Shown piece after piece: positions 5,198 to 34,471 of a DNA stretch of 40,163 bases. The stretch's first letter is position 1, and the number at the start of each line of letters is the position of its first letter. The translations under genes and the position numbers were made by a program. Origin of the DNA: a virus (lineage: Duplodnaviria; Heunggongvirae; Uroviricota; Caudoviricetes); IMG/VR virus record IMGVR_UViG_2671180637_000025, positions 1-40,163 of that record, one strand, 5' to 3'. The notes beneath the pieces are model-generated. The model ran no database searches, was not told where the DNA came from, and was given only the letters and a program-made list of their open reading frames with translations.

Positions 5198-5274
5198 TTA
5201 CCGTTGGGGTAATGATTATGCGTATCTGGTTTGATGTCAATAGATATGAGTTAAAAAAATTACCCGTTAGGTAA
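5198..5274. promoter_or_regulatory. OL-like operator pair: TTACCGTTGGGGTAA (5198..5212) and TTACCCGTTAGGTAA (5260..5274)
   Basis: Two dyad-symmetric TTACC-N5-GGTAA 15-mers 62 bp apart, between the 3' end of the repressor gene and the first gene of the leftward operon. Confidence 0.65.
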
Positions 5275-5331
5275 TCAAACAGGCAATAAAAAAGCCGCCA
5301 TAAGGCGGCTTACTTACTGAAAAATATGGTT

Positions 5332-5916
5332 TTATTGTTTGTTTTTTTCGTTCTGGCTGATGACAAATTCAATGTAACTTTCGATCTTTGCCTTCTCTGT
5401 TTCAGGTAACAATGCGTAGCGCGAGCGGTCATAGTTGATGGTCGCAGGGTCGTGCGGGTGAATCAGTAATTCATAGCCGTGACGCCCGAATGCGGATGCA
5501 ACATTCTCCAGGGTGGAAATGGAAACGCTGACCTCATTGTTTAACAGGCGGCTGATTGTCACCTGGGCGACGCCGGATGCGCGGTGAAGTTTTCCCTGCG
5601 TTGAAAGGTCGCGGCTTTCGCTCATCCAGCGTTCCAGGTTGTGAGCCGCCAGTTGACCAATGTCGCTTGGTCCGACAGGCTGAAAACCTTCCTGAGAAAG
5701 CGAGCGATCGATATCAAGCCAGTTACGGGGTTTATTGGCGGCAGCTTCAATTTTTCGCGCAACCTGGTCGCCGATAACCTTCTTGCCAAGAGCCCAGCGG
5801 TTTACCAGATTTGCCTGAGTTCCAAGTTTTTCTGCCATCCGCGTCTGAACACCATTGAATTCACGGTCGATCAAGTCGTTGAGATTTTGCCTGCGGACGT
5901 CCTGGATACTTTTCAT
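5332..5916 (-). CDS. Immunity repressor (CI analogue) with two HTH domains and no LexA/S24-type autocleavage domain
   Basis: 194 aa; divergent from the Cro-like gene across a three-operator region; XRE-like HTHs (MAEKLGTQANLVNRWALGKK and ASGVAQVTISRLLNNEVSVSISTL); no peptidase-like C-terminus. Confidence 0.75.
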   Translation of the reverse strand: MKSIQDVRRQNLNDLIDREFNGVQTRMAEKLGTQANLVNRWALGKKVIGDQVARKIEAAANKPRNWLDIDRSLSQEGFQPVGPSDIGQLAAHNLERWMSESRDLSTQGKLHRASGVAQVTISRLLNNEVSVSISTLENVASAFGRHGYELLIHPHDPATINYDRSRYALLPETEKAKIESYIEFVISQNEKNKQ

Positions 5917-5971
5917 TTTCTGGAAAATCGCCTCATATATGAATCGGTAGATGATTCAATTTAAAGCAATA

Positions 5972-6034
5972 TTACCCAACAGGTAAATGCACCCCATAGG
6001 TAACTATCCTTGATTTTTGTTACCTTATGGGTGA
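5972..6034. promoter_or_regulatory. OR-like tripartite operator: TTACCCAACAGGTAA (5972..5986), GCACCCCATAGGTAA (5989..6003, degenerate), TTACCTTATGGGTGA (6020..6034)
   Basis: Three TTACC-N5-GGTAA-type dyads in the 154-bp divergent region between repressor and Cro-like gene. Confidence 0.7.
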
Positions 6035-6070
6035 ATATTTATTATCTGAAATAAATATCAGGCAATAGCT

Positions 6071-6301
6071 ATGAGCGATAACGGACATTTCGATTTCAAA
6101 AAGCACTGGCTTGCACTTACTCCGGATGAGCGTGAAGCCTTCGCACAGGAAGCCGGAACGACGAGTCACTATATCCAGACTCACTTAACAGGTAAGCGCA
6201 AAATGCCAGGTAAAGTATTGATGAATGGGCTTTTTAAAGCCTGTAAAACAAGACAATGGCTGCGCTCAAAAGCAGAACTGGCATACTTCTTCTACTCATG
6301 A
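6071..6301 (+). CDS. Cro-like small regulator (HTH), first gene of the rightward operon
   Basis: 76 aa; divergent from repressor; position and size. Confidence 0.6.
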   Translation: MSDNGHFDFKKHWLALTPDEREAFAQEAGTTSHYIQTHLTGKRKMPGKVLMNGLFKACKTRQWLRSKAELAYFFYS

Positions 6302-6323
6302 TATCCAGCCACAACCCTCTGTA

Positions 6324-6346
6324 GACCGCCATCCGGCGGTCTTTTC
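6324..6346 (+). terminator. tR1-like intrinsic terminator after the Cro-like gene
   Basis: Stem GACCGCC / GGCGGTC with loop ATCC followed by TTTT. Confidence 0.55.
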
Positions 6347-6451
6347 ATATCTATTCGTACCTCAAAGGTAATAAAAAACCAAATCTGGTTGATCTTTTTT
6401 TTGTGTCAGCACAAAATAACCGTAATCCCAATACTAATAACAGGGCTTACC

Positions 6452-6652
6452 ATGGAAATCATTACACGTATTGATGCCGCAAAGCGCGGACTTAAACGCT
6501 ACTACACCGGAAAACCATGTAAGCACGGACATGACAGTGAACGCTGGGTTTACAACGGACACTGTGTTGAGTGCACCATGGAATCAAACCGTCGCATCAG
6601 GGCAGAGATTAAGCAGATCATGATTAATTCCTCCCCACAACATTCAAGCTGA
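6452..6652 (+). CDS. Small zinc-ribbon-like protein in the lambda cII position
   Basis: Internal ATG of ORF 6389..6652; 66 aa; CKHGH...CVEC cysteine/histidine cluster; no resemblance to lambda CII itself. Confidence 0.45.
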   Translation: MEIITRIDAAKRGLKRYYTGKPCKHGHDSERWVYNGHCVECTMESNRRIRAEIKQIMINSSPQHSS

Positions 6653-6667
6653 TAGCGGAGATTAATC

Positions 6668-7459
6668 ATGAGCAGACATGCAACAGATTGGGCCTGGGAG
6701 ACAGATCCAGGTAGCTCGTCATTAAAGCTCATACTGCTCTCGATGGCTGACAGAGCCGATGAATATAACCTCTGCTACCCCAGCATAGAACGCCTCGTTA
6801 AAGACACCTGCCTGAATAAAAAAACCGTACAGGCCGGGCTTATATCGCTCATGAAAATGGGGCTTATTTCAGATACCGGAGAGAGAAAGGGAGCGACGAA
6901 AAGAGTGCGGGTTTTCTCTCTTAATATAACCAAAAACGGGAACATTAAAGGCAACCGGGAAGGGAGCAATGAACCCGAAAACGGTAATGTTACCGAAAAC
7001 GGGAATATACCCAAAAACGGGATGTTGAATGATCCCAAAAACGGGATCCAGAACCAGTCATATAACCAGTCATTTAACCAAGAGAGGGAGAGCAGGACAA
7101 AAAGCGGGGATTCTGTGCCTCATGACCCCGGCGCAAACAACGCCGTGATGAATAACTTTGTTCCTCCTGGTGGGCCAGGGCAATTAGGCAAATTTGTCAT
7201 GCATGAACAATGGCAACCATCAGATGACTTTCTTCGGAAAAGCTCATTGCAGGGGATCTACCTGGACAGTCTGCCAACGGCACAGGAACTTGCAGAGTTC
7301 AGAATTTACTGGATGGCTGAGGGTAAGGCATACCATCAGGCACAGTGGGAGCTGAAGCTGGCAAGGCGGCTGCAGATTAGCAGACAGAAGCAATCAACAT
7401 TACCTGATAACAACGTTCCGCACTGGAACAGCCCTGAAGCGTGGGAGGATTTCTTGTGA
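6668..7459 (+). CDS. Replication initiator, lambda O-like, with origin iterons inside the gene
   Basis: 263 aa; N-terminal HTH; central NGN/KNG peptide repeats mirror five DNA iterons; immediately upstream of the P-like gene. Confidence 0.8.
   Translation: MSRHATDWAWETDPGSSSLKLILLSMADRADEYNLCYPSIERLVKDTCLNKKTVQAGLISLMKMGLISDTGERKGATKRVRVFSLNITKNGNIKGNREGSNEPENGNVTENGNIPKNGMLNDPKNGIQNQSYNQSFNQERESRTKSGDSVPHDPGANNAVMNNFVPPGGPGQLGKFVMHEQWQPSDDFLRKSSLQGIYLDSLPTAQELAEFRIYWMAEGKAYHQAQWELKLARRLQISRQKQSTLPDNNVPHWNSPEAWEDFL
6929..7048 (+). repeat. Replication-origin iterons: five direct repeats of C(A/G)AAAACGG(G/T)A(A/T)
   Basis: Cores at 6931, 6976, 6994, 7012, 7036 (spacings 45, 18, 18, 24 bp), all inside the O-like coding region. 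Confidence 0.75.
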
Positions 7460-8241
7460 ACAACGTTTTTACCGCGATACAAAACCGTGACGGAGAAGCC
7501 CTTTCTCGCATGTCAGGTTATGAGCATCAGTACGTCAACAATGACAATGTGGTGAACATGTCAGCAGAGAGGCTTGTTGATGCCCTTTTCAAACAGCTGA
7601 AACAACTGTTTCCGGCGGCAGTGGTAACCAACCTGAAGACGCCAGAGCAGGAAGTTGCTGCAAAACAGCAGTGGATTGCTGCGTTTGCCGAAGGGGGGAT
7701 CCGAACCCGTGAACAGGTTTCTGCTGGTATGCGCCACGCCCGCGCCAGTGAATCTCCGTTCTGGCCGTCGCCAGGGCAATTTATCAAGTGGTGTAAAGAC
7801 AGCAAGATGGTTCTTGGCGTCACCATTGACGATGTGATGGCGGAGTTTCACCGGTACAGCAAGGAAAAAAGTTTATATCCTGGTGGTCCCGAAAGATTCC
7901 CGTGGCGACATCCGGTTATGTACTGGGTCGTATGTGATACCCGCCGTGCAATGTATCAGCGCCAGCTTAGCGAGATTGAGGTTGAGAAACATGCGCGCAG
8001 GCTGCTCGATGATTGGGCGAAAAAGGTGGCTTCCGGACAGCAGATACCCGATCCGGTGATCAGCATACAGGCAAAGCCAGAACCCATGAGTACGCCTCCG
8101 GACACAGGGAGAGACGTTTACCATCCACCAGGGCGAAGTTTCGGGTGTATGCCTAACGCCGCTACCCTGGGGGGAATAACACCGGCGCAGTGGCTGATGG
8201 AGGAATACAGGCGGGGAAAGGCGGCAGGATTTATCAAGTAA
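7456..8241 (+). CDS. Replication protein P-like (helicase loader)
   Basis: Collinear with recalled lambda P (EQVSAGMRHARASESPFWPSPGQFIKWCKD vs lambda EQVNAGMRVARRQNRPFLPSPGQFVAWCRE); start placed at GTG 7456 behind GGGAGGA; track ORF starts at 7441. Confidence 0.8.
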   Translation: MNNVFTAIQNRDGEALSRMSGYEHQYVNNDNVVNMSAERLVDALFKQLKQLFPAAVVTNLKTPEQEVAAKQQWIAAFAEGGIRTREQVSAGMRHARASESPFWPSPGQFIKWCKDSKMVLGVTIDDVMAEFHRYSKEKSLYPGGPERFPWRHPVMYWVVCDTRRAMYQRQLSEIEVEKHARRLLDDWAKKVASGQQIPDPVISIQAKPEPMSTPPDTGRDVYHPPGRSFGCMPNAATLGGITPAQWLMEEYRRGKAAGFIK

Positions 8242-8278
8242 TACCAGCGCGATAGCGCATTTTTTTACGTCTTGATAA

Positions 8279-8355
8279 TTACCTGTTGGGTAATAAAATA
8301 TTCTAAAATCTATTGATTTCGTGTCTTATGTGGTTTTTAATTACCTCGTGGGTAA
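8279..8355. promoter_or_regulatory. Second OL-type operator pair: TTACCTGTTGGGTAA (8279..8293) and TTACCTCGTGGGTAA (8341..8355)
   Basis: Two perfect TTACC-N5-GGTAA dyads, again 62 bp apart, bracketing TTGATT-N17-TTTAAT just upstream of the ATG at 8359. Confidence 0.6.
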
Positions 8356-8358
8356 ATC

Positions 8359-8703
8359 ATGAGAAAACAGATACAGGCTCTTGGTCGACTCAAAACAGGC
8401 CAGATGAACAAAACAGAATCTGCGTATTGCCAGCACCTTGAGCTGCGTAAACGTGCAGGGGAAATCGCCTGGTATCGATTCGAGGGTATCAAGCTGCGGT
8501 TAGCTGATAACACGTTCTATACGCCAGATTTCGCTGTGATGCTCGCCACCGGAGAGATGGAACTGCACGAAGTGAAAGGTTTCTGGACCGACGACGCCAG
8601 GGTGAAAACCAAAGTCGCCGCAGATCAATATCCGTTCCGAATCATCGGGGTAACTGTTAAGCCAAAGAAAGCAGGTGGTGGCTGGAAAATCGAAGAGTTC
8701 TGA
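8359..8703 (+). CDS. VRR-NUC / PD-(D/E)XK-type nuclease (possible junction resolvase)
   Basis: 114 aa; motif YTPDF...(17 aa)...ELHEVKG, and GFWTDDARV resembling RusA GFWLDDAQV. Confidence 0.55.
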   Translation: MRKQIQALGRLKTGQMNKTESAYCQHLELRKRAGEIAWYRFEGIKLRLADNTFYTPDFAVMLATGEMELHEVKGFWTDDARVKTKVAADQYPFRIIGVTVKPKKAGGGWKIEEF

Positions 8704-8764
8704 ATCGACGATCTTTTTAGTTATCAATGTAATCAATAAGTTATGTGGATAAGCGAGGGTAAAG

Positions 8765-10092: not shown

Positions 10093-10093
10093 G

Positions 10094-10849: not shown

Positions 10850-10859
10850 GGACTAACAA

Positions 10860-11609: not shown

Positions 11610-11611
11610 CC

Positions 11612-11839
11612 GTGGCTAACCTGCAACTTGCCGTAAAAGGTGAAAAAGATTTGAGGATTCGCATCATTAATAACACCGACAAGCATCCGGAAGATTATTT
11701 GGATTGCACGTTAGCAGAGTGCGGTATTTCCGTATGGGATGAGTTCGATGTGATGCGTAAAACCGCTTACGGCTATGTCGTAATTCATAACGGAGAAGAA
11801 TTATTTGTTCGTCGGTCAGAATGCGTGGAATTGATATAA
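11612..11839 (+). CDS. Hypothetical protein (75 aa)
   Basis: GTG start 3 nt after the upstream stop, RBS AGGAGG. Confidence 0.45.
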   Translation: MANLQLAVKGEKDLRIRIINNTDKHPEDYLDCTLAECGISVWDEFDVMRKTAYGYVVIHNGEELFVRRSECVELI

Positions 11840-11896
11840 GAGAATCTCCGTACATCGGCAACACACAGCTAAATATGTTCGCAATAAAGGTAAATA

Positions 11897-12238
11897 TTGA
11901 TGGCTAAATCAGCAGCAGAGCGCAAAGCCGCTCAGAGAGCCAGACAAGCTGCATCTGGTGTGCGTAAGCTGGAGATTGTGCTTGATGCTCAGGAAATTGA
12001 AATGCTGGAGCGTAACTGTGCCACGCGTCGCCCCGGGCGTGCGCCTTACGAATTTGGTGAGTATATAGCGTTACTGATCCGCCAGGATGATGCACGCGTG
12101 CGCGGGCGTATAAAATCGATCAGCAGAAAACGTTGCGGTAAGTGCGGCGAGAGAGTTCCTGTGAATTCATGCCCGTGTAATGGTGACTCGCAATGCTGGG
12201 TGACTAAAGGCTGGCATGAAACGAAATTAATAGTGTGA
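11897..12238 (+). CDS. Putative zinc-finger regulator; positional candidate for a late-gene regulator
   Basis: 113 aa; C-terminal CGKCGERVPVNSCPCNGDSQC; last gene before the terminase block; stop codon lies inside the 14-bp palindrome. Confidence 0.4.
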   Translation: MMAKSAAERKAAQRARQAASGVRKLEIVLDAQEIEMLERNCATRRPGRAPYEFGEYIALLIRQDDARVRGRIKSISRKRCGKCGERVPVNSCPCNGDSQCWVTKGWHETKLIV

Positions 12239-12247
12239 CATGTCACG
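12234..12247. repeat. Copy 1 of 14-bp motif TGTGACATGTCACG
   Basis: Exact 14-mer, one of three in the window. Confidence 0.8.
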
Positions 12248-12255
12248 AAGGTGTT

Positions 12256-12468
12256 ATGCCAAAAATACGCTACGACCTTGAAGATATGAGAGATAACTCA
12301 GCAAATTTTCCGAAAGAGGTTAAATTTCTCATGCATAAGTATGGTTGCGCCAGGAGGGATATAGTTATCGACAGTCAGCACCCTTGCGGCGAGGATGTAA
12401 TTTTCATTCGCGGTAAATGGGAAGGGTATCTTGACGAGAGTTTTTACGATGAATTTGATGGACTTTGA
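12256..12468 (+). CDS. Hypothetical protein (70 aa)
   Basis: Start placed at ATG 12256 behind GAAGGTG; the track start at 12235 lies inside the palindrome. Confidence 0.4.
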   Translation: MPKIRYDLEDMRDNSANFPKEVKFLMHKYGCARRDIVIDSQHPCGEDVIFIRGKWEGYLDESFYDEFDGL

Positions 12469-12510
12469 ATACTGCCGCCAACTATGGCGGCTTTATTTTG
12501 CATGGTACTA

Positions 12511-12543
12511 TTACCACAACGGTAACTATTACCACGGTGGTTA
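12511..12543. promoter_or_regulatory. Operator-like sites upstream of terminase: TTACCACAACGGTAA (12511..12525) and degenerate TTACCACGGTGGTTA (12529..12543)
   Basis: Part of direct repeat GGTA(A)CTATTACCAC x2; the Thr-rich track translation here looks non-coding. Confidence 0.5.
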
Positions 12544-13139
12544 TGATGCCTGCTGAACCTAAAACCTATAAACGCAAATCAACGCAATTTAAGCCGCTCA
12601 CAGCAATGCAGGAGGCTTATTGCCAGTCATACATCAAAACGCCTGAAAACCAGACTCAGGCAGCGATTAACGCAGGATTCTCCCCAAATACAGCGGCAGT
12701 TAAAGCCAGTGTAATGATGCGCGATGAACGCATTCAAAAACGGATTGCCGAGTTGATGGAGGAGCGCAACAAACGAATGCGCGTCAGTGCTGATTACGTT
12801 CTCATGCGCCTGGTGGAGATCGACCAGATGGACGTGATTGATATCCTCAACGACGATGGAAGCCTTAAGCCAATTCGCGAGTGGCCGAAAATCTGGCGCA
12901 CTACGCTTAGCGGCTTTGATCTGTCATCGACCATCATGAACATGAATGAGGATTCGATAGAGACAATCCTCAAAAAAATTAAATGGCCTGACAAGGTGAA
13001 GAACCTTGAGCTGATTGGTAAGCACGTCGATGTCAATGCATTCAAAGAACGCCTGGATGTTAATGTAAATGTGACAATTGCTGATCGCATAGCAGCAGCC
13101 AGGAAGAGACTGAAAGAACGTCAGGATGGCAATCAGTGA
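12543..13139 (+). CDS. Terminase small subunit
   Basis: AAINAGFSPNTAAVKASVMMRDERIQKRIAEL signature; start placed at ATG 12543 (track ORF begins at TTG 12465); ATGA overlap with large subunit. Confidence 0.7.
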   Translation: MMPAEPKTYKRKSTQFKPLTAMQEAYCQSYIKTPENQTQAAINAGFSPNTAAVKASVMMRDERIQKRIAELMEERNKRMRVSADYVLMRLVEIDQMDVIDILNDDGSLKPIREWPKIWRTTLSGFDLSSTIMNMNEDSIETILKKIKWPDKVKNLELIGKHVDVNAFKERLDVNVNVTIADRIAAARKRLKERQDGNQ

Positions 13140-14681: not shown

Positions 14682-14684
14682 GAT

Positions 14685-15078: not shown

Positions 15079-15155
15079 TGGCGTGGCATGCAGGATTCGA
15101 ACCTGCGACCAACCGCTTAGAAGGCGGTTGCTCTGTCCAACTGAGCTAATGCCAC
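15079..15155 (-). tRNA. tRNA-Arg (anticodon UCU), argU-like, phage-internal
   Basis: 77 nt GTGGCATTAGCTCAGTTGGACAGAGCAACCGCCTTCTAAGCGGTTGGTCGCAGGTTCGAATCCTGCATGCCACGCCA; perfect 7-bp acceptor stem, D stem GCTC/GAGC, anticodon stem ACCGC/GCGGT with loop CTTCTAA, T stem GCAGG/CCTGC with loop TTCGAAT, encoded CCA. Confidence 0.85.
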
Positions 15156-15477: not shown

Positions 15478-15492
15478 TTACCTGAAGGGTAA
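15478..15492. promoter_or_regulatory. Operator-like site TTACCTGAAGGGTAA upstream of the virion operon
   Basis: Perfect TTACC-N5-GGTAA about 90 bp upstream of ATG 15583. Confidence 0.5.
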
Positions 15493-15582
15493 TAATTCGT
15501 GCGTTAAATGTCAACCATCTACGATAAATAAAACATATGTGGTTAAATTGGTAATAATTTAATTGCGTACGGAGTCATTGAT

Positions 15583-24769: not shown

Positions 24770-27282
24770 TGCCAGTCGTACCAACAGTATCCGGACGTCA
24801 GGTTGAGAGTCGTGGAGTTCAGTCAGCAGGCTTGCAGACGTTTTCTCAGCCAGGTATTGGTGATGCTTTTGTTCGGGCAGGGACAGAGGCAATTGATGTT
24901 TTGGGGCAGGCAAAACAGCGTGCCAATATCGCTCTGGCTCAGGAGGCATCTCTTAACCTCAGTCAGATAAGCAGCGATCTGCTGAATAATCCTGAAACAG
25001 GTTTGCTTAACCTGAAAGGGAAAAATGCTATTGGAAAAGGTCAGGAGTATACGCAGCAGTTTGATGCTCAGATCGAACAACTGGCTATGTCGCTGCCGGA
25101 TGAACAGGCTCGTAATGCTTTCATGCAGCAGGCACAGCAGCAGCGCATTCAGTTCACTACGCAGGCCGGGAGGTACGAGATAGGGCAAATAAATGCCTAC
25201 GAAGAAGGCCAGTTTCAGGCTACGCTGCTGAACAATGGTAAAAATGCCGCAGCATTGTATGGCGACAACGCCGCATACGTATTGGCTAATAAGCAAACTT
25301 TCCAGCAAATTGAGGATTACGGCATTGCACATGGCTGGATTGACGAGCAAATCCAGGCCAAGAAAATCGAGTTTAAAGAAGCAACAGCAAAAGCAACTGC
25401 TCAAAATGCTATTGGAGCAAACTATCTTCAGGTAAGACAGCAAAACGGCGAGTTAAGCGATACTGCTGCTGGATCTCGCCGTGCTGTAGCAGATAGTGGC
25501 TCTTCCGATCGTACCCGCGGTATACGCAACAATAACCCCGGCAATCTTGAATACAGCAAAACTAATCCGTGGGTTGGGCAGACTGGTGATGATGGGCGCT
25601 TTGCCAAATTCGAAACCCCTGAACACGGTATTCGTGCATTAGGGCGGAACCTGATGTCGTATCAGCGCCAGGGTATTGATACCGTTAGTGAGATAATTAA
25701 TCGCTGGGCACCGCCTACTGATAAAAATGACACTATGTCGTATATCAAAGCAGTGTGCGAACAACTTGGCGTTTCTGCTGATGAGCCTCTCGATGCATCA
25801 AATCCTGATACCCTGAAGGCGCTTTGTGCAGCCATTATCCATCATGAAAACGGTAGCCAGCCATACAGTGATCAGCAGTTAACTGCAGGTGTTAGTGCTG
25901 CGCTTGGGCTTTCTCAGCTACCGACAAAAAATAAACGTTATACCGGTGTAGCCTGGTTCGATGCTTTAAGTGAATCAGATCAGGCCAGCGTGTTGCGACA
26001 GACTGATGCACTAGCCAGACAACAGCAGGCTGAATATAAAACGATGCTCGACAGCCGGGTTCGCGATGCGACGGCTGCGTATATGCGTGGCGTTGAATTT
26101 CCTAACCCACCTGGTGAGGATGATTTTATTGCAGCTTATGGAGTCAGAGAAGGAAACCTGCGATATACCGAGTTTAAGAATACGCAGATCGCCGGACAGT
26201 ATATAGGCTCTTTCCGCAACATGCCGACAAGCAACATTACAGCATATGTTGAGCAATTACGCCCGGATACTGGTGAGACAGGGGAGGGGTATGCGGCACG
26301 CGCAGCTCTTTATGACAACGTTGTTTCGGCTGCAAATCAGGTGATAAAGCAGCGGCAGTCGGATCCTGTGCAGTTCTCTCTTGCCTCCGGACAGGCAAAG
26401 CCTATCGACATGAGCAATAAGGATAACTTTGGACAGAGCGTTGCCTTGCGTGCCGCTCAGGTCAGTGACCTTGCTAAGTCATATGGCACTCCACTGACGT
26501 TCTTTTCCAAAGACGAGGCCAATCAGATCGGTGTTTTCTTTCGTGATGCTCCAGTTTCCCAACAGGCAGCATATCTCGATACCATCAGGCAGAGCACTGG
26601 TGGTGGGCAGGTGTATATGTCAGCACTACAGCAGATCAGTGCCAACGCTCCATCTGCTGCCGTTGCCGGGATACTGATGGACAAGCCTGGTGGTATTTTG
26701 GCAGAAAAAAACTGGTTTAATCCGGATGTTTCCGTGTCTCCTGAAACCGCTGCGCAGACAATTCTTGCTGGCGCGGCGGCTCGTAAAGGTACTGATGATG
26801 CGAAAGGTATTACGATGCCTAAAGATGCTGATCTTCGCCTTGAGTTTTCTGACATGGTGAAGGATGCATTTGCTGGTGATGCTCAGGGGGCATCAATGGC
26901 ATACGAGATCGCAAAGGACTATTACGCTGGTGTGATGGCGAAAAAAGGCGTGGTATCAGGCGAAATTGACAATGATGTCTGGAAACAGGCTGTTAACGTA
27001 GCTACAGGTGGCGTGCATGACTATAACGGAATGGGGAATGTCCTTTTGCCGTGGGGAATGTCTGCAGAGCAATTCGATAAGCAGGTTAATCAGGCTTGGA
27101 ATGAACAAGTTGTCGGCACCGGGATAAAAACACCGCCTGGTCAGTATGGTTTGCAAAGTTATGGTGATAGTCAGTACCTGGTGAAACTTGGTACTGGTTA
27201 TCTGCTGAAAGATGATGGTTATCCTGTTGTTCTTGATCTGACACAGAAGCGTCAGAGATTCTCCGGAGATATTCCGCAATGA
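24769..27282 (+). CDS. Internal virion / ejection protein, gp15-like
   Basis: ATG 24769 overlapping upstream TAA, RBS GGAGGA; 837 aa; conserved block RGIRNNNPGNLEY...IINRWAPPTDKNDT that I cannot assign. Confidence 0.55.
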   Translation: MPVVPTVSGRQVESRGVQSAGLQTFSQPGIGDAFVRAGTEAIDVLGQAKQRANIALAQEASLNLSQISSDLLNNPETGLLNLKGKNAIGKGQEYTQQFDAQIEQLAMSLPDEQARNAFMQQAQQQRIQFTTQAGRYEIGQINAYEEGQFQATLLNNGKNAAALYGDNAAYVLANKQTFQQIEDYGIAHGWIDEQIQAKKIEFKEATAKATAQNAIGANYLQVRQQNGELSDTAAGSRRAVADSGSSDRTRGIRNNNPGNLEYSKTNPWVGQTGDDGRFAKFETPEHGIRALGRNLMSYQRQGIDTVSEIINRWAPPTDKNDTMSYIKAVCEQLGVSADEPLDASNPDTLKALCAAIIHHENGSQPYSDQQLTAGVSAALGLSQLPTKNKRYTGVAWFDALSESDQASVLRQTDALARQQQAEYKTMLDSRVRDATAAYMRGVEFPNPPGEDDFIAAYGVREGNLRYTEFKNTQIAGQYIGSFRNMPTSNITAYVEQLRPDTGETGEGYAARAALYDNVVSAANQVIKQRQSDPVQFSLASGQAKPIDMSNKDNFGQSVALRAAQVSDLAKSYGTPLTFFSKDEANQIGVFFRDAPVSQQAAYLDTIRQSTGGGQVYMSALQQISANAPSAAVAGILMDKPGGILAEKNWFNPDVSVSPETAAQTILAGAAARKGTDDAKGITMPKDADLRLEFSDMVKDAFAGDAQGASMAYEIAKDYYAGVMAKKGVVSGEIDNDVWKQAVNVATGGVHDYNGMGNVLLPWGMSAEQFDKQVNQAWNEQVVGTGIKTPPGQYGLQSYGDSQYLVKLGTGYLLKDDGYPVVLDLTQKRQRFSGDIPQ

Positions 27283-29081: not shown

Positions 29082-29086
29082 ATTAA

Positions 29087-31534
29087 ATGAGACAGGAATG
29101 TATACAAGCGGTTCAGCAGGCGGCGCAGCGCACGTTAACGGCGCGAGAAATACAGAACATTGAAGACCGCATTTATCGAAATATGCGCTCCATTGCTCGT
29201 GATGACCCGATGTCGTGGAGACAACTTTCCGAATCAGAGCGGCTATATCGAGCAGCACAATTGGCATCTGAAGAATTACAGCGAGAAGCGGCATTAAAGA
29301 AACGTCGTGTGGCCCTCACTATAGCTGCACGTCAGAGATTGGATAAATTTATCAATAGCTATCAAGGGGCTGATGGGAAACTTGGCGCTCTTAACCGTAC
29401 TATTGCTTTTAATGCAGACGGTAAATCGAATTTCCTCTCTGTTGAATCCAGAACAAAAGCCACTCGTGATTATGCATTGAGTCAATTGCAGGAGGCATTC
29501 GAAGCAGTTGATCCCCGCTTTTTTGGTCTGTTTGAAGATGAAGCGGGCGTACGTGACCTGGTATATGAAATGCGGGGGCAAAATACTGGCAATGCTAAAG
29601 CAAGAAAAGGTGCTAAGGCATGGAGAGAAGTTACAGAGCTGCTGCGCCGCCGGTTTAATGATGCTGGTGGGGACATTGGCTATCTCGAAAACTGGGGGAT
29701 CCCTCAACATCATTCTATGGAAAAGGTTGGGGCGGTATCAAAAGATAAATGGGTTAGCGATGTTATAGGTAAGCTGGATCGCAAATATTATACCCGAGCC
29801 GATGGACAACTGATGAACGATGCCGAGTTGTCTGCATTTCTTGGAGAGGCTTATAACACGATCGCTACTGGTGGGCTGAATAAGCTTACTGATACCGGAA
29901 TGCGAATTTCCGGCGCACGTGCTAACCGTGGTAATGCATCACGACAGATACATTTCAAAGATGCAGATTCCTATCTGCAATATCAGCAACTTTATGGCGA
30001 TCGCTCTCTATGGGAAATCATGGTCGGTCACCTGGAAGGTATCAGTAAAGATATTGCACTGGTGGAAACATATGGCCCAAACCCCGATCATGTTTTCCGC
30101 TCTCTTCTTGATCAGGTGAAGGCAGAAACGGCAACAGCTAACCCGAGTAAAACCGGTAAAGTCGAGCGGCTGGCGAACAACACAGAGAATCTGTACAACT
30201 TTATTTCCGGAAAGACACAGCCTGTAGCGAATCCGCACATCGCGCGATGGTCTGACAATATCCGCAACTGGCTGGTTGCCAGCAGACTCGGATCCGCGTT
30301 GCTGTCATCGTTCTCTGATCTTGGAACCATGTATCTGTCTGCGAAGGTTACCAACCTTCCAATGAACCAGTTATTCCGCAACCAGCTTGAAGCTATGGAC
30401 CCAACGAACCGTACAGAACTTGCGCGGGCGCGCCGCGCTGGTCTGGCGATGGAATCTCTACTTGGCAGCGTTAACCGCTGGGCGATGGATAATATGGGGC
30501 CGTCAGTGTCTCGTTGGGCGGCAACGGCGGTAATGCGTGCCAGTGGGCTTACAGCATGGTCAGATGCGCACAAGCGCGCCTATGGCGTAACCATGATGGG
30601 AAGCCTGGGAGAAGTAGTGTCACTGACACCAGACCTTCGTAGCCTCGATGACTCTGATTTTCGTATCCTGAAAAGCAAAGGGATTACTGACACAGACTGG
30701 AGCGTATGGAAGCTGGCGCAACAGGAGGACTGGGGGAACGGTAATAATACGATGCTGACACCGGAAAGCATTATGCGTATCCCTGATTCAGCAGTTAAAC
30801 ATCTTGGTGAGCCTGAGCGCGTGAAATTTGAGGCAATGCGTAAATTGCTCGGTGCCGTAACTGAAGAAGTTGATATGGCTGTTATTACACCGGGAGCTCG
30901 TGAGCAACTGATAACCGGTTCTGGTATTCAGCGTGGAACATGGAAAGGTGAATTAACGAGAAGTGTTTTCCTGTTTAAATCGTTCCCTATCTCGGTTGTT
31001 ATGCGTCACTGGTCACGCGCTATGGGTATGCCGTCTGCTGGTGGGCGTGCGGCATATATTGCGACGTTTATTGCCAGTACGACCATTCTTGGCGCTTTGT
31101 CGCAGCAACTTAACGACCTTGCGTCTGGTCGTAATCCTCGAGAGATGACAGGAGAAGATGCCGCAAAATTCTGGCTTGGTGCTCTACTGAAAGGTGGTGG
31201 TCTTGGCCTTTACGGTGACTTTTTATTGTCAGATCACACTAGGTACGGAAGCGGCGCGCTGGCGTCGATGCTTGGCCCGGTAGCTGGTCTGGTTGATGAC
31301 GTAGTGAAGATTGCTCAGGGCATACCGTTAAATGCTGTGGAAGGGAAGAGTGAGCAGACTGGTGGTGATCTGGTGAAGCTGGGGAAAGGTTTGATGCCAG
31401 GTGCGAATCTCTGGTACTTGAAGGCGGCTCTCGATCACATGATCTTTAACCAGATGCAGGAGTATTTTTCACCAGGCTATTTGCGTAAAATGGAGCAACG
31501 TTCGAAGAAAGAGTTTAATCAGACATACTGGTAG
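29087..31534 (+). CDS. Internal virion / ejection protein (gp16-like, part 2)
   Basis: 815 aa; Gly-rich C-terminal segment; last large gene before the accessory island. Confidence 0.5.
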   Translation: MRQECIQAVQQAAQRTLTAREIQNIEDRIYRNMRSIARDDPMSWRQLSESERLYRAAQLASEELQREAALKKRRVALTIAARQRLDKFINSYQGADGKLGALNRTIAFNADGKSNFLSVESRTKATRDYALSQLQEAFEAVDPRFFGLFEDEAGVRDLVYEMRGQNTGNAKARKGAKAWREVTELLRRRFNDAGGDIGYLENWGIPQHHSMEKVGAVSKDKWVSDVIGKLDRKYYTRADGQLMNDAELSAFLGEAYNTIATGGLNKLTDTGMRISGARANRGNASRQIHFKDADSYLQYQQLYGDRSLWEIMVGHLEGISKDIALVETYGPNPDHVFRSLLDQVKAETATANPSKTGKVERLANNTENLYNFISGKTQPVANPHIARWSDNIRNWLVASRLGSALLSSFSDLGTMYLSAKVTNLPMNQLFRNQLEAMDPTNRTELARARRAGLAMESLLGSVNRWAMDNMGPSVSRWAATAVMRASGLTAWSDAHKRAYGVTMMGSLGEVVSLTPDLRSLDDSDFRILKSKGITDTDWSVWKLAQQEDWGNGNNTMLTPESIMRIPDSAVKHLGEPERVKFEAMRKLLGAVTEEVDMAVITPGAREQLITGSGIQRGTWKGELTRSVFLFKSFPISVVMRHWSRAMGMPSAGGRAAYIATFIASTTILGALSQQLNDLASGRNPREMTGEDAAKFWLGALLKGGGLGLYGDFLLSDHTRYGSGALASMLGPVAGLVDDVVKIAQGIPLNAVEGKSEQTGGDLVKLGKGLMPGANLWYLKAALDHMIFNQMQEYFSPGYLRKMEQRSKKEFNQTYW

Positions 31535-31570
31535 CGACCTCAGGATGTCACTCCGCAATAAGGAAGTGTT

Positions 31571-31744
31571 GTGTTTTTAATTATTTTGAGTGTGATAATT
31601 TCTGGTGGGTTGTTATTTATTGACCGCTACAAATATTTTCTTAACCCTCAGACTCAAGCTATTTGCTGGTTCATCTTTGTTGTGCAGGGAATAGTTCTTG
31701 TTGCAAGCCTTATTGAGGGGAGGCCTCTGATTTTTACTGGGTAA
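31571..31744 (+). CDS. Small membrane protein (57 aa, two predicted TM helices)
   Basis: Not in ORF track; GTG 31571 behind AAGGAAG; translation VFLIILSVIISGGLLFIDRYKYFLNPQTQAICWFIFVVQGIVLVASLIEGRPLIFTG; AT-rich. Confidence 0.35.
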   Translation: MFLIILSVIISGGLLFIDRYKYFLNPQTQAICWFIFVVQGIVLVASLIEGRPLIFTG

Positions 31745-31756
31745 ATAGGTGACTAC

Positions 31757-32047
31757 ATGCAAGCTATAGGATTCATTGTTTATATCGTCGTTGGTCTTTT
31801 TCAGTTGGCAGCAATTATGGCTGGGCTTGAATCATGGTGGGGATTGCACTGGATAATTGCAGCCCCCATTGCTTTCATCGTGAGCTATATTCCATTTGTT
31901 GGAGCGATTGTTGGTATGGTTGGTGCTGTGGATGTATGGCTGTGGGAGTGGTGGCAGGCTGGCCTTCTCTTCTTTGGTGGGATCATCTTTGCTATTGTCT
32001 GCGGTGGAATGTCATCATTTTTCGAACGGCTATCATTCAGAAAATGA
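31757..32047 (+). CDS. Small Trp-rich membrane protein (96 aa, about three TM helices)
   Basis: RBS AGGTGA; strongly hydrophobic; followed by an intrinsic terminator. Confidence 0.55.
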   Translation: MQAIGFIVYIVVGLFQLAAIMAGLESWWGLHWIIAAPIAFIVSYIPFVGAIVGMVGAVDVWLWEWWQAGLLFFGGIIFAIVCGGMSSFFERLSFRK

Positions 32048-32048
32048 A

Positions 32049-32062
32049 CGTGACATGTCACA
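32049..32062. repeat. Copy 3 of 14-bp motif TGTGACATGTCACG (reverse orientation)
   Basis: Plus strand reads CGTGACATGTCACA, the exact reverse complement of copies 1 and 2. Confidence 0.8.
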
Positions 32063-32087
32063 GGCCGCTTTCGCGGCCTTGTTTTTA
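32063..32087 (+). terminator. Intrinsic terminator after the membrane-protein gene
   Basis: Stem AGGCCGC / GCGGCCT with loop TTTC followed by TGTTTTT. Confidence 0.6.
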
Positions 32088-32247
32088 ACGAATGCCACCG
32101 CCGCCAGGGCGGGAATCCGCAGAACGCCCACCGCAGCGGGAGCCGTCAGCAGCAGTGTCGCTGTCGTGCTGACAACGACCGGCAAAGGCCTGAGTTGAAG
32201 CTACCAGAGACAACAAAACGAACAGTGCAGCAAATGCTTTTTTCATT
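32085..32247 (-). CDS. Possible small secreted peptide (53 aa)
   Basis: MKKAFAALFVLLSLVASTQAFA looks like a signal peptide; the mature part is short and another frame is also protein-like, so possibly frameshifted. Confidence 0.25.
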
Positions 32248-32315
32248 GTGAAATTTCCATCTATAAGCCACCTCAATGTGGCGTCAATGAGTGTAGCACT
32301 GACTTTTGTTTCGTC

Positions 32316-32340
32316 CACAAAAAAGCCCGCGGCGCGGGCT
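32316..32340 (-). terminator. Intrinsic terminator closing the two-gene minus-strand operon
   Basis: Stem AGCCCGC / GCGGGCT overlapping the stop codon, T-run on the minus strand. Confidence 0.55.
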
Positions 32341-32717
32341 TAATTAACTTCGAGGATAATAGAATCTTTAGACTTGAATCCCACTTTCCTCATGGCTGTA
32401 ATGACGTTTTGGATAATCCACGTTTTCCCAAACTCTCTTTCGTGTACAATGGCGCAAGGAAAATGAAGGGCGCTTTTGTTGCACTTTATGGTGAAAGTTG
32501 TACCTTCGGCAAAATCCAAAACAGTCTGCAGATGTGCAGATATAAACGATTTAAACACATCTTCAAGCTCAGCAAGAGTAATTGGCGGTTTGTTCCTCTC
32601 GTCGTTCAGGCGTTCATATGCTGCATGAAATGAAAAGTGAATTCTTGCCGCATCTTCTTGCAAGATCTCGTTAATCTCATCCTCAAGATCAATGAGTTGT
32701 TGTTCTGTTATAGACAT
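32340..32717 (-). CDS. Hypothetical protein (125 aa), distal gene of the island operon
   Basis: Overlaps the proximal gene by 10 nt; AT-rich; no recognisable motif. Confidence 0.5.
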   Translation of the reverse strand: MSITEQQLIDLEDEINEILQEDAARIHFSFHAAYERLNDERNKPPITLAELEDVFKSFISAHLQTVLDFAEGTTFTIKCNKSALHFPCAIVHEREFGKTWIIQNVITAMRKVGFKSKDSIILEVN

Positions 32718-32926
32718 AGATAACGGGAGGTCGCCTCACTTATTTTTTGATTTAATTCATCATCATTGGATGCACGTACAGTAGCAACATGCTTACTTTG
32801 GCGTAGGGTCCCAATTCTGATATCAAATTCTTCATTATCGAAAGAGTCAACGAAAACAGCTTTACCAGTTTCTGGATGGTAAAAAGAGGCATAGTTTTGG
32901 TTGAGTTGCATATCAAATTTAAACAT
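32708..32926 (-). CDS. Hypothetical protein (72 aa), proximal gene of the island operon
   Basis: Strong RBS GGGAGG before ATG 32926; operator-like site and TTGATT -35 upstream. Confidence 0.5.
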   Translation of the reverse strand: MFKFDMQLNQNYASFYHPETGKAVFVDSFDNEEFDIRIGTLRQSKHVATVRASNDDELNQKISEATSRYLCL

Positions 32927-33043
32927 ATCATCCTCCCATACGGGAACAGACGTGACTTACATACGGTGTGATTTTGACTAGTTAACTTTCTGCAGCAAAA
33001 CCATCACGGTAACTACAAACTAAAATGTTACAAATCAACTTTC

Positions 33044-33058
33044 TTACCTTTGGGGTAA
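33044..33058. promoter_or_regulatory. Operator-like site TTACCTTTGGGGTAA upstream of the island operon
   Basis: Perfect TTACC-N5-GGTAA about 120 bp upstream of ATG 32926; a degenerate copy at 33003..33017. Confidence 0.5.
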
Positions 33059-33123
33059 TAGTACGCTATTCACCTGCAATCTGTACAGAATTATTTAAAG
33101 GCACATCCCTGTGCCGCCGCCCG

Positions 33124-33810
33124 TCAGAAGAACCATGCCTTGTCGTTGATGTACTCCGCGTGCGTCTGGATATCACGCAGGCATTTGCTCACACCGACGA
33201 TGTAGCAGAACATGGTGGTCAGTTCCGCCGCCGCGCCCGATACATCATGCCCGTCGTCCTGCAACTGGTTTAGCAGATTCATCAGCAGTGAGTTCTCCGT
33301 CAGGCCGAGAACACCAGACGGCGAGTGAATCAGGCTACGGTAGCCTGGCTTCAGTGGGGCACTGTAGGTTTTGTTCTCTATCTTCATTGCCTGCATCACT
33401 GCTGATGCTGTGGCGTTGGCTACCTGGTCGGCAACCATCTTTATGCGTTCTTCCTGCGGGAGCGAGTTTTTAATGTAACTTCCGGTGCGGCGGATCTGAG
33501 GAAGAACCTCACCTGTAACCCATTTACGAAAGCGGTAGGGGATAGTGCCTGGTGTCACTGCGTCGCGGCAGCGGAGGATCAGTGTGTAGAGGCCTGACTC
33601 GTTGATAATATTGGTTTCGCCTTGACGGCCTAAGTTAAATTTAGCCCTTTCATCATCATCAAGAGATTTTATTGACATAGTGGGGTTTGTCAGTTGAAGA
33701 GCTTTAATAACGTCTTTGGCAACAAACCAAGGATTTCCATCAATAACAATGGCTCGAATGGTTGCTTCTGATTCAAAATGAAAAACAGATGGGGTTACGT
33801 TAGCAGTCAT
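33124..33810 (-). CDS. Antirepressor, Bro-N-type N-terminal domain plus C-terminal domain shared with the neighbouring small ORF
   Basis: Start at ATG 33810 behind AGGTGA (track extension to 33963 runs through a terminator); Bro-N signature VFHFESEATIRAIVIDGNPWFVAKDV. Confidence 0.7.
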   Translation of the reverse strand: MTANVTPSVFHFESEATIRAIVIDGNPWFVAKDVIKALQLTNPTMSIKSLDDDERAKFNLGRQGETNIINESGLYTLILRCRDAVTPGTIPYRFRKWVTGEVLPQIRRTGSYIKNSLPQEERIKMVADQVANATASAVMQAMKIENKTYSAPLKPGYRSLIHSPSGVLGLTENSLLMNLLNQLQDDGHDVSGAAAELTTMFCYIVGVSKCLRDIQTHAEYINDKAWFF

Positions 33811-33962
33811 AGTGATCACCTTTGTAGTTAGGTTAATCACCACTACCGACGCCAATCGGTTGGTGGTGAACTGTGCAGGGTTGGCGTAACCGGCTACAAA
33901 GGACCCGGCGCACCTTTCGGTGCCCCCACACAGCCCACCATAGAATAGGTGCGCTTTACACA

Positions 33963-33982
33963 TAAAAAAACCGCTTATGCGG
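33963..33982 (-). terminator. Intrinsic terminator between the two antirepressor genes
   Basis: Stem CCGC / GCGG with loop ATAA followed by eight T on the minus strand. Confidence 0.55.
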
Positions 33983-34076
33983 CATATGTGCCTCTGTAGT
34001 AATCCGGGACGCCAATCCCGGCACTGGATTTTGCCAGTGCCCGATTACTATGGCACAAGAGGAGTGCGATGTAAAT

Positions 34077-34091
34077 TTACCGTAAAGGTAA
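34077..34091. promoter_or_regulatory. Operator-like site TTACCGTAAAGGTAA upstream of the Bro-N antirepressor gene
   Basis: Perfect TTACC-N5-GGTAA. Confidence 0.5.
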
Positions 34092-34122
34092 ATATAAGCA
34101 CTCCTCTTGGTAATTTCAAATC

Positions 34123-34380
34123 TTATCTGGTTTGTTTTCGTAATTGTTCGGCACAATAGTCGAGATGTGTTTGCAGATCCCGCATAGACATCTGTGAGCT
34201 GGTGACGTAGTTAATCAGTGCAGTCAGTTCGGCAAGTGGGCCATCGACATTAAATCCATCCTTATCGAGATCCAGGAGTAATTTCATCAAGTGCGATCCC
34301 TCCACTAGTGATCTGACGCCTCCCGGCGTGTGAATCCTTTCGGTAAATCCGTCTTCCAGTGGATAGTGATACTGCTGCAT
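34123..34380 (-). CDS. Small antirepressor-domain protein (85 aa), SOS-regulated candidate
   Basis: Start at ATG 34380 behind GGAGAAG (track extension to 34503 would cross the LexA box and operator); by-eye ~40-45% identity to the C-terminal ~80 aa of the adjacent antirepressor. Confidence 0.55.
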   Translation of the reverse strand: MQQYHYPLEDGFTERIHTPGGVRSLVEGSHLMKLLLDLDKDGFNVDGPLAELTALINYVTSSQMSMRDLQTHLDYCAEQLRKQTR

Positions 34381-34399
34381 CTTATCTTCTCCATGCAAT

Positions 34400-34419
34400 A
34401 ACTGTATATTTATACAGTA
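34400..34419. promoter_or_regulatory. LexA (SOS) box AACTGTATATTTATACAGTA
   Basis: 19/20 match to the recalled consensus TACTGTATATATATACAGTA; 20 bp upstream of ATG 34380 on the minus strand. Confidence 0.8.
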
Positions 34420-34456
34420 GCAAATAATTTGTTTGCTATCCAGCACGTTTTGCAAA

Positions 34457-34471
34457 TTACCCGAAAGGTAA
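34457..34471. promoter_or_regulatory. Operator-like site TTACCCGAAAGGTAA in the divergent region between small antirepressor gene and tailspike
   Basis: Perfect TTACC-N5-GGTAA; GGTAA half-site also at 34517..34521. Confidence 0.5.

Follow-up and report, generated by a model that had tools for sequence, protein, structure and literature searches.

A repeated TTACC-N5-GGTAA dyad as the probable immunity-switch operator at most lytic transcription units of an epsilon15-like Uetakevirus prophage

The dyad A-TTACC-W5-GGTAA-T, repeated across the 40,163-nt stretch of viral DNA analysed here (the window), is very probably the operator of the epsilon15-like (Uetakevirus) immunity switch, which would be bound by the repressor Rep in the lysogen at most lytic transcription units; a probability of about 85% was assigned to this reading. 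The window corresponded to a Uetakevirus prophage ~97% identical to phiV10. A first-pass annotation of this DNA had proposed that a single immunity-switch operator was present not just at PL and PR but at many other lytic promoters, and this core reading was supported, at the level of sequence, by four lines of evidence: the sites form OL and OR around rep and recur at the starts of other units, in or adjoining promoter hexamers or ribosome-binding sites; five other Uetakevirus lineages keep them at corresponding positions within diverged flanking intergenic DNA; seven orthologous sites carry a repressor-binding annotation in the GenBank record of epsilon15; and distant homologues of the Rep DNA-binding domain in unrelated phages have the core dyad beside their own cI genes. 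The broader proposal that essentially every lytic unit is gated in this way goes too far: sites mark most units, but none was found before the lysis operon of this prophage even when 3 mismatches were allowed.

Ten exact copies of TTACC-N5-GGTAA were counted in the window, against 0.02 expected by chance, and 13 sites were found with at most one mismatch, against 0.76 expected (Table 1). The dozen or so repeats noticed earlier were thereby borne out, each exact copy lying where it had been placed, and the opinion that a chance origin is very unlikely agreed with these counts. Only the N5 spacer was enriched, with 10 dyads against 0-1 at each other spacer from 0 to 15 and in the everted form, and when the 5-N(0-12)-5 dyads were all scanned de novo, TTACC-N5-GGTAA came first with 10 copies, the runner-up reaching 3. 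Non-coding DNA represented 8% of the window, yet it held all 13 of the exact and one-mismatch dyads. No exact copy was found in lambda or in two 50-kb pieces of E. coli K-12, control sequences in which any dyad reached 3 copies at most; the motif was thus not equally frequent in host DNA (0 in 100 kb of K-12). The extended consensus was A-TTACC-WWWWW-GGTAA-T, with A/T at the central base in 110 of 114 symmetrised cases, and the spacer was free in sequence apart from its A/T richness, which is what a protein-bound dyad would show.

Table 1. Candidate operators and associated genes and signals of the prophage (positions in the window)
Feature	Position	Strand	Match to dyad	Remarks
OL1 operator	5198-5212		exact	on the last base of the PL -10 and the start region
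PL, leftward candidate promoter	-35 TTGACA 5240-5235; -10 AATCAT 5217-5212			
OL2 operator	5260-5274		exact	62 bp from OL1, 20 bp upstream of the PL -35
rep, immunity repressor, 194 aa	5332-5916	-		full-length homologue of SPC32H Rep
OR operator closest to rep	5972-5986		exact	
Middle OR site, weak	5989-6003		2 mismatches	
OR operator	6020-6034		1 mismatch	occupies the spacer of rightward promoter-like TTGTTA-17-TATTAT (6017-6045)
Cro-like small repressor, 76 aa	6071-6301	+		phrog_35
Extra operator	6357-6371		1 mismatch	overlooked by the first-pass annotation
Operator	8279-8293		exact	immediately after a conserved terminator; occupies the spacer of TTGATA-16-TAAAAT (8272-8299)
Operator	8341-8355		exact	62 bp downstream of 8279; ends 3 nt before the DUF1064 start codon (8359)
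Operator upstream of terS	12511-12525		exact	follows terminator 12474-12491
Operator	12529-12543		1 mismatch	18 bp from 12511; adjoins the likely terS start (ATG 12544)
Lone operator	15478-15492		exact	upstream of the gp3/portal virion operon
Lone operator	33044-33058		exact	upstream of two small leftward accessory genes (32926-32340)
Bro-N protein	33124-33963	-		C-terminal residues 196-276 in the same PHROG family as Ant
Operator upstream of the Bro-N/Ant-like gene	34077-34091		exact	start region of leftward promoter-like TTGAAA-17-TATATT (34119-34091)
ant, small antirepressor	34123-34380	-		homologue of SPC32H Ant
LexA box (predicted) AACTGTATATTTATACAGTA	34400-34419			~20 bp upstream of ant
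Operator	34457-34471		exact	divergent ant/tailspike intergenic region

In the immunity region, rep was flanked by dyads on both sides, as OL and OR. OL2 was located immediately after the rep terminator (5311-5292). The site at 6357, which was also found in phiV10, directly followed the cro terminator (6323-6342) and preceded the replication genes. The OR triplet previously described stood for 5972 and 6020, while its middle member was found to be weak; the ortholog of 5989 is exact in epsilon15, SPC32H and BUCT711, and 5989 is credible solely because of the exact ortholog in epsilon15.

Similar arrangements were found at other transcription units. The pair 8279/8341 had been noted to be spaced like the OL pair, and both distances were exactly 62 bp, the two sites constituting a cassette in register with OL2-PL-OL1; the downstream gene, previously read as VRR-NUC, scored as DUF1064 instead. 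The 18-bp pair of the 12511/12529 type was kept in phiV10, epsilon15 and Tyrion, and 15478 was a conserved island in otherwise unalignable upstream DNA. No counterpart of 33044 was identified in the five other Uetakevirus genomes, in which this position was not aligned. A further degenerate site that had been listed at 33003 was rejected, since it differed at 7 of 10 positions and retained GGTAA alone, and the nearest two-mismatch match, at 32998, was at background level. Thus, the earlier list of sites was retained for the ten exact copies, 6020, 12529 and the weak 5989, lost 33003 and gained 6357.

Regarding promoter geometry, the operators occupied the spacers at 8279 and 6020, began at the last T of the -10 at 5198, 33044 (a weak TACTAT) and 34077, and adjoined start codons at 8341 and 12529, and terminators directly preceded 5260, 6357, 8279 and 12511. 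These promoter calls are consensus matches, which occur at background frequency, and no sigma-70-like promoter above threshold was found at 12511/12529, 15478 or 33044. No dyad was present inside the 16-kb virion operon. The site at 34457 was kept in six of six genomes, its ortholog being marked as a repressor site in the epsilon15 record, and it overlapped a -10 by two bases. Since the conserved candidate -10 of the tailspike gene lies ~55 bp downstream of it, and repressors do not classically act from such a position, this operator more plausibly serves ant than the tailspike gene. The consensus-based assignment of the ant and tailspike promoters was itself ambiguous.

Conservation was assessed among six Uetakevirus genomes (this prophage, phiV10, Tyrion, BUCT711, epsilon15 and SPC32H). 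The top palindrome in all six was the same dyad, with 8-11 exact copies in each (10 in SPC32H), and orthologous positions were found at OL, OR, the DUF1064/RuvC promoter, terS, the portal operon and ant/tailspike. The pair spacings of 62, 17/18 and 48 bp were preserved among genomes, and the dyads appeared as conserved islands within diverged intergenic DNA. In the epsilon15 record (GenBank AY150271.2), seven orthologous sites are marked as protein_bind 'repressor' (upstream of terS, of gp3 and of RuvC, between gp19 and the tailspike gene, and three at OL), and IHF sites adjoin two of them. Because this record already annotates the same scattered sites as repressor-binding, dispersed repressor operators are an already known feature of the genus. 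Moreover, every enteric relative with this capsid also had a Rep homologue and the same half-sites. Predicted repressor-binding sites of epsilon15 were reportedly described by Kropinski et al. in 2007; one form of the epsilon15 operator consensus had no match in literature full text.

The same core dyad was also found with distant homologues of the Rep DNA-binding domain, there only beside their own cI genes. The cI of Pseudomonas phage PseuP_224 combines a Rep-like N-terminus (E=1e-12) with an S24 peptidase C-terminus, and TTACC-N4-GGTAA occurs 3-4 times in this phage, all within ~900 bp around cI (31.7 kb scanned). Likewise, Psychrobacter pOW20-A carries (A/T)TACC-N5-GGTAT 4-5 times, at its own OR and OL, and Moraxella Mcat9 carries TTACC-N5-RRTAA-like sites at its own OR. 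The H-19B cI, with a DNA-binding domain 34% identical, has TTATC/GATAA-type operators, which speak neither for nor against this association, and in BcepC6B, which has a related capsid and a cI-type repressor, no dispersed operator was found, its dyads being just GC-rich and compositional. Since PseuP_224 also has a Cro-like (YdaS-type) protein beside cI, read from an unannotated ORF, the association between domain and dyad does not separate Rep from Cro.

Concerning the proteins, Rep matched 5D50_A over residues 1-190 (E=4e-42), and its Pfam search returned HTH families only, the S24 peptidase domain being absent. The NLVNRW segment of its N-terminal HTH was invariant across the genus, as was AGTTSHYIQ.HLT in the HTH of the Cro-like protein (58-84% identical overall), and the invariance of both HTHs matches half-sites that stay unchanged. 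Ant matched 5D50_E (E=1.6e-45), and its gene was placed as SPC32H ant, divergent from the tailspike gene. The core of the predicted LexA box, CTGT-N8-ACAG, was invariant in the six genomes, and AACTGTATATTTATACAGTA was its sole match in the window. The Bro-N protein is probably a second antirepressor, as suggested by its Ant-like C-terminus. In this way, the Uetakevirus Rep-operator-Ant features were present together: a full-length Rep homologue, with an N-terminal HTH and a C-terminal tetramerisation/Ant-binding domain but no S24 peptidase, an Ant divergent from the tailspike gene, a predicted LexA box, and dyads at the positions annotated in epsilon15.

These features suggest a mechanism in which Rep, of the SPC32H type and without a self-cleavage domain, would occupy the dyads in the lysogen, Ant, under LexA control, would inactivate it, and in lytic growth the Cro-like protein would probably bind these sites as well. 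The genome would be split into short units, most of them beginning with a terminator followed by a promoter with its operator, which lies within the promoter spacer or covers either the start point or the ribosome-binding site. An operator at most unit starts implies that Rep would silence most lytic units directly, beyond PL and PR, namely the early-left, early-right, replication, DUF1064-to-regulator, terminase, virion, ant, Bro-N/Ant-like and small accessory units. According to PMC9638917, which cites Kim et al. 2016, the DNA-bound form of Rep is a tetramer that contains two DNA-binding dimers, and in SPC32H Ant disassembles tetrameric Rep. Such a tetramer fits the conserved pairs at 62 bp and 17-18 bp, the former corresponding to about six helical turns and to a pair bracketing a promoter. 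The counts, placement and conservation of the motif, the homology of Rep and Ant, and the association of the DNA-binding domain with the dyad were observed directly; that Rep binds the dyads, represses from every one of them and bridges paired sites is what we infer. When the ZX5 repressor, 99.5% identical to Rep of this prophage, was overexpressed, endolysin and holin transcripts fell by more than 99.9% (PMC9782041), an effect that could be indirect.

It is unlikely that the Cro-like protein, or some other small HTH protein, is the main ligand of the dispersed sites, which would then lower early and middle promoters in lytic growth instead of silencing the prophage through Rep. The Cro-like protein is conserved even beyond Rep, with an invariant HTH; its PHROG family is annotated as transcriptional repressor; PseuP_224 has a Cro-like gene next to the same dyads; and in lambda-type switches the operators are common to Cro and CI. 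As the binder, Rep and the Cro-like protein are indistinguishable in silico, and the first-pass annotation had allowed both. However, repression restricted to the lytic phase would hardly account for operators at the virion, terminase and antirepressor promoters, rep itself is bracketed by sites, the Rep N-terminal domain accompanies the dyad even when its C-terminus is swapped for an S24 peptidase, and the epsilon15 annotators credited the sites to the repressor.

Two other explanations were considered highly improbable. The dyads might be roadblocks inside transcripts, comparable to the gp71 stoperators of mycobacteriophage L5, rather than promoter operators: they are many and genome-wide, and some of them (8341, 12529 and, in epsilon15, the third OL site) are downstream of the likely start, adjoining start codons. 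Nevertheless, L5 stoperators are said (Brown et al., 1997) to be asymmetric, orientation-biased and often within or between genes of long operons, whereas the sites described here are symmetric and all intergenic, with 0 inside the 16-kb virion operon, and most overlap promoter hexamers. Slightly less probable still is a structural or host-factor element apart from immunity, whether a hairpin in RNA, a host site of the IHF type, or a signal for packaging or replication. A 5-bp hairpin could indeed be formed by the dyad, IHF sites are found beside two sites in the epsilon15 record, and one pair directly precedes terS, a possible place of pac-related elements; however, the stem is just 5 bp with an A/T-rich loop, the sites fall on both sides of likely start points in units on either strand, the motif is not enriched in host DNA, the spacer is as free as in a protein-bound dyad, and the motif follows a specific HTH domain through unrelated phages.

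If the dyads are Rep operators, the silence of a common prophage type, whose immunity region is present in ~10% of complete E. coli genomes, would be explained without a lambda-style antitermination cascade: one repressor would act on most lytic promoters, and one LexA-controlled antirepressor would free them all together. This would help in the annotation of phiV10-like prophages, in whose records these features are missing, and in the engineering of phiV10-based reporter phages, although the finding opens no new question. A more speculative joint reading, considered possible but doubtful, combines a frozen switch specificity, one genus-wide immunity group, mobile promoter-operator cassettes and a late-promoter mark. 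Since about a dozen operators are scattered and there is no swappable immunity cassette, the switch may be fixed in its DNA specificity; the enteric Uetakeviruses examined (of E. coli, Salmonella, Klebsiella and Enterobacter) all have identical half-sites and invariant recognition helices, although Rep is only 42-45% identical overall, and they would then be one immunity group. The promoter-operator cassette would be a duplicated unit, as in PL and the 8272 module in register, and such cassettes would extend immunity control to newly acquired accessory genes (33044, 34077). Another conserved element, CATATgTGGTT (the CATATGTGGTT element), was sometimes fused to an operator half-site; it might mark late promoters with competition between an activator and Rep.

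Among the closest known systems, epsilon15 shares with this prophage the genus, the dyad, its positions (terS, gp3/portal, ant/tailspike, OL and RuvC/DUF1064) and the 62-bp and 18-bp pair spacings, with Rep proteins 42% identical (53% in the DNA-binding domain), although the epsilon15 sites are themselves apparently predictions. In epsilon15, unlike in this prophage, OL includes a third site, the middle OR site is exact and the lysis operon is preceded by a site; relative to epsilon15, this prophage has additional sites at 6357 and, within an accessory region of its own, at 33044 and 34077. The Rep-Ant lytic switch of SPC32H, reportedly the subject of Kim and Ryu in 2013 and Kim et al. in 2016 (PDB 5D50, 5D4Z), is alike in its full-length rep and ant homologues, the LexA box before ant and the 10 exact dyads; as regards the published work, the comparison covers its protein mechanism (tetrameric Rep, disassembly by Ant), and this prophage has an additional gene, in which Bro-N is fused to an Ant-like domain.

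In the plasmid prophage P1, one immunity repressor, C1, acts on many dispersed operons through asymmetric 17-bp operators bound by the C1 monomer. Direct control of scattered operons with no single cascade is the only logic in common, since the dyad is symmetric and the repressor of this prophage, unrelated to C1, is homologous to SPC32H Rep. The L5 gp71 stoperators, which are asymmetric and orientation-dependent and stop elongation, resemble the present sites in their many genome-wide repressor sites and global prophage silencing, but perfect dyads, 13 of 13 intergenic and none within long operons, do not belong to that class. As with lambda CI, operators around the repressor gene would be common with Cro, and an oligomeric repressor would bridge separated sites; in lambda, however, operators are confined to the immunity region and later genes are controlled via N and Q antitermination.

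The dyad TTACC-N5-GGTAA, a putative operator whose copies are named here by their first window coordinate, had been proposed in the first-pass annotation to recur far beyond chance, and this was borne out by ten exact copies in 40,163 bp against 0.02 expected from dinucleotide-preserving shuffles. Thirteen sites carried at most one mismatch, against 0.76 expected, and all 13 were non-coding, in a window where non-coding DNA makes up 8%. When spacers of 0 to 15 nt were scanned, enrichment was found at N5 only (10 sites vs. 0–1 for the others) and never for the everted half-site arrangement, and the dyad ranked first in an unbiased count of all 5-N(0–12)-5 palindromes. No exact copy was present in phage lambda or in two 50-kb stretches of E. 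coli K-12, and no dyad of such kind rose above three copies there; thus, the objection that the motif might be equally frequent in host DNA fails. All ten exact coordinates first listed were matched, and 6020 and 12529 were recovered as one-mismatch sites, whereas a third such site, 6357, was absent from that list. In the proposed OR triplet, 5972 is exact and 6020 has one mismatch, but 5989 has two; a degenerate copy placed at 33003 mismatches at 7/10 positions and is no site, and the gene after 8341, named VRR-NUC, scores as DUF1064.

The prophage belongs to the genus Uetakevirus, is ~97% identical to phiV10, PAS61 and phiv142-3, and shares ~76% identity with epsilon15 in virion genes. Its integration site adjoins yfgI/yfgH, and its immunity region is present in 558 of 5,426 complete E. 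coli genomes. This dyad also far outnumbered every other palindrome in phiV10 (8 exact copies), epsilon15 (11), SPC32H (10), Enterobacter phage Tyrion (9) and Klebsiella phage BUCT711 (9), and its positions were orthologous in all, or nearly all, six genomes. OL carried a pair spaced by 62 bp and OR two or three sites; a further pair with 62-bp spacing preceded the DUF1064 or RuvC gene, and one with 18-bp spacing preceded terS. Single sites lay ahead of the gp3/portal operon and in the ant/tailspike intergenic region, and four lineages had another shortly downstream of ant. In intergenic alignments the operators stood out as islands of identity with unalignable upstream flanks, and 57 pooled sites gave the consensus A-TTACC-WWWWW-GGTAA-T, with A or T as the central base in 96% of symmetrised cases. 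It was also observed that phiV10 and epsilon15 have in common a one-mismatch site 57 bp ahead of int; this position falls just beyond the left edge of the window, which opens with the int start codon. The annotated phiV10 terS (41-715) begins upstream of both operators (window 12465-12544), but, judging by epsilon15, the gene probably starts instead with the ATG at 12544, directly after the second operator.

Switch genes and putative operators (window coordinates unless a phage is named)
Feature	Position	Strand	Context
rep (immunity repressor)	5332-5916	minus	full-length SPC32H Rep homologue (5D50_A, E=4e-42)
ant (small antirepressor)	34123-34380	minus	SPC32H Ant homologue (5D50_E, E=1.6e-45)
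LexA box, near-consensus	34400-34419		AACTGTATATTTATACAGTA, ~20 bp upstream of ant
Bro-N protein	33124-33963	minus	C-terminal residues 196-276 in Ant's PHROG family (phrog_450, E=1.5e-35)
Site	5198 (OL1)		starts at last T of PL -10 (TTGACA-17-AATCAT)
Site	5260 (OL2)		directly 3' of intrinsic terminator
Site	6020 (OR)		fills candidate promoter spacer TTGTTA-17-TATTAT
Site	6357		directly 3' of intrinsic terminator
Site	8279		fills candidate promoter spacer TTGATA-16-TAAAAT; directly 3' of intrinsic terminator
Site	8341		adjoins start codon
Site	12511		directly 3' of intrinsic terminator
Site	12529		adjoins start codon
Site	33044		starts at last T of weaker -10 match
Site	34077		starts at last T of -10 (TTGAAA-17-TATATT)
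Site	34457		two-base overlap with -10 (TAGACA-17-GATATT)
Pre-int site	phiV10 26870-26884		TTACCTTAAAGGTAT, one mismatch
Pre-int site	epsilon15 26882-26896		TTACCCTAAAGGTAT, one mismatch

The placement of these putative operators on candidate promoters is the geometry of repression. In the promoter scans, whose matches overall occurred at background frequency, neither terS, nor the portal operon, nor 33044 showed a sigma-70-like promoter above threshold. The terminators and operator-bearing promoters thus depict the genome as a chain of insulated units, most of which would resume transcription from a Rep-guarded promoter. The spacing of 8279 and 8341 had been likened to that of the OL pair (62 bp), which holds: the OL2-PL-OL1 and 8279-8341 modules are in register over 81 bp (47/81 positions identical), with a common block, ATCTATTGA, at the -35, and the shared spacing therefore reflects a duplicated operator-promoter-operator cassette. 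A tetramer with two DNA-binding dimers could fill both sites of such a pair, whose separation is about six helical turns. The gating of essentially every lytic unit, as first proposed, is supported for most units, but not for all, since no dyad within three mismatches precedes the lysis operon of this prophage, unlike epsilon15 (exact site) and phiV10 (one mismatch). The 34457 site lies ~55 bp upstream of a conserved candidate tailspike -10 (TAGAAT, 34522-34527) and more plausibly controls ant than the tailspike gene. Also present, in the ~1 kb that separates terL from the portal operon, is a tRNA-Arg (anticodon TCT, 15079-15155, minus strand).

The repressor-antirepressor switch of epsilon15-like phages has already been solved structurally. 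According to PMC9638917, citing Kim et al. 2016, the DNA-bound form of Rep is a tetramer in which the DNA-binding dimers form across dimers, and Ant disassembles this tetramer. A domain search revealed no peptidase domain in the Rep of this prophage. The LexA-box core before ant is invariant in six genomes, and the box is the sole such match within the window; because Rep is without a self-cleavage domain, this predicted box fits SOS induction through the antirepressor. The C-terminal segment of the Bro-N protein belongs to the Ant family, and the prophage therefore carries two Ant-type domains, each of which is behind a candidate promoter with a putative Rep operator. Ant is near-identical to that of SPC32H over 83 residues, whereas Rep is only ~40% identical in its Ant-binding C-terminal domain and 53% in its DNA-binding domain, an odd asymmetry for interacting partners. 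An 11-bp perfect inverted repeat (AAGAGGAGTGC ... GCACTCCTCTT; 34047-34108), noticed by eye, brackets the 34077 operator and could form a long hairpin in ant read-through RNA, with the operator in the loop.

Every enteric relative combined a Rep homologue with the same half-sites, so the genus offered no covariation contrast; NLVNRW in the N-terminal helix-turn-helix (HTH) of Rep and AGTTSHYIQ.HLT in the Cro-like protein were invariant, consistent with unchanged half-sites. The Rep N-terminal domain was therefore sought outside the genus. In Pseudomonas siphovirus PseuP_224 it is fused to an S24 peptidase (39% identity, E=1e-12), and three to four copies of TTACC-N4-GGTAA, the only ones in the 31.7 kb scanned, cluster within ~900 bp around cI. 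This phage has a Q antiterminator gene and, over the length scanned, confines its operators to the immunity region. Psychrobacter phage pOW20-A carries (A/T)TACC-N5-GGTAT four to five times at OR and OL, and Moraxella phage Mcat9 has TTACC-N5-RRTAA-like sites at OR, whereas H-19B, whose homologue is the most remote, has operators of the TTATC/GATAA type. Thus, the HTH domain and a TACC/GGTA dyad travel together in unrelated phages, which is the best available in-silico evidence for the motif as a switch operator, and the comparison shows that what sets Uetakeviruses apart is the dispersal of the putative operators, not the motif. An unannotated ORF of PseuP_224, however, reads as a Cro-like (YdaS-type) protein, and therefore the domain-dyad link does not separate Rep from Cro; probably both use the sites, as in lambda.

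A second conserved motif, CATAT(G/A)TGGTT (15534-15544, 34501-34511, 8325-8335, 37017-37030), was observed at a distance of 40-75 bp ahead of the gp3/portal, tailspike and lysis operons, and also inside the 8279/8341 operator pair. Most of the six genomes have it in matching places, and neither lambda nor 100 kb of K-12 contains it. The copies at 15534 and 34501 are each succeeded, 5 nt further on, by the operator half-site GGTAAT. This motif may be a late-promoter or activator element; a conserved regulator gene (phrog_536, 11897-12238) ends the early-right operon. Next to the one-mismatch operator after the cro terminator, the minus strand carries a degenerate copy of this motif (6357-6390), forming the composite CAGATTTGGTT-N5-TTACC-N5-GGTAC (one mismatch in phiV10), which is the same as that at 8325-8355 but directed leftward, towards the Cro-like gene, and might serve as an antisense promoter comparable to lambda oop.

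That such dyads are dispersed in epsilon15-like phages is known and has already been annotated. In fact, the epsilon15 record AY150271.2 holds seven protein_bind features, labelled 'repressor / lysogeny', exactly on these dyads (one each ahead of terS, gp3 and RuvC, one in the gap that separates the Ant homologue gp19 from tailspike, and three at OL); thus, the dispersed operator set was already documented for the genus, and the phiV10 record is without such features. Overexpression of the ZX5 repressor, 99.5% identical to this Rep, is described in PMC9782041 as abolishing free phage and lowering holin and endolysin mRNA by >99.9%. Gating of most lytic units by dispersed putative operators is supported, and the residual novelty is modest: the sites at accessory genes that are particular to this lineage (33044, 34077), the duplicated cassette and the possibility that dispersal froze immunity specificity across the genus. 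This logic resembles that of P1, whose C1 repressor has dispersed operators, and the sites differ from the stoperators of L5, which are asymmetric and sit within transcribed regions.
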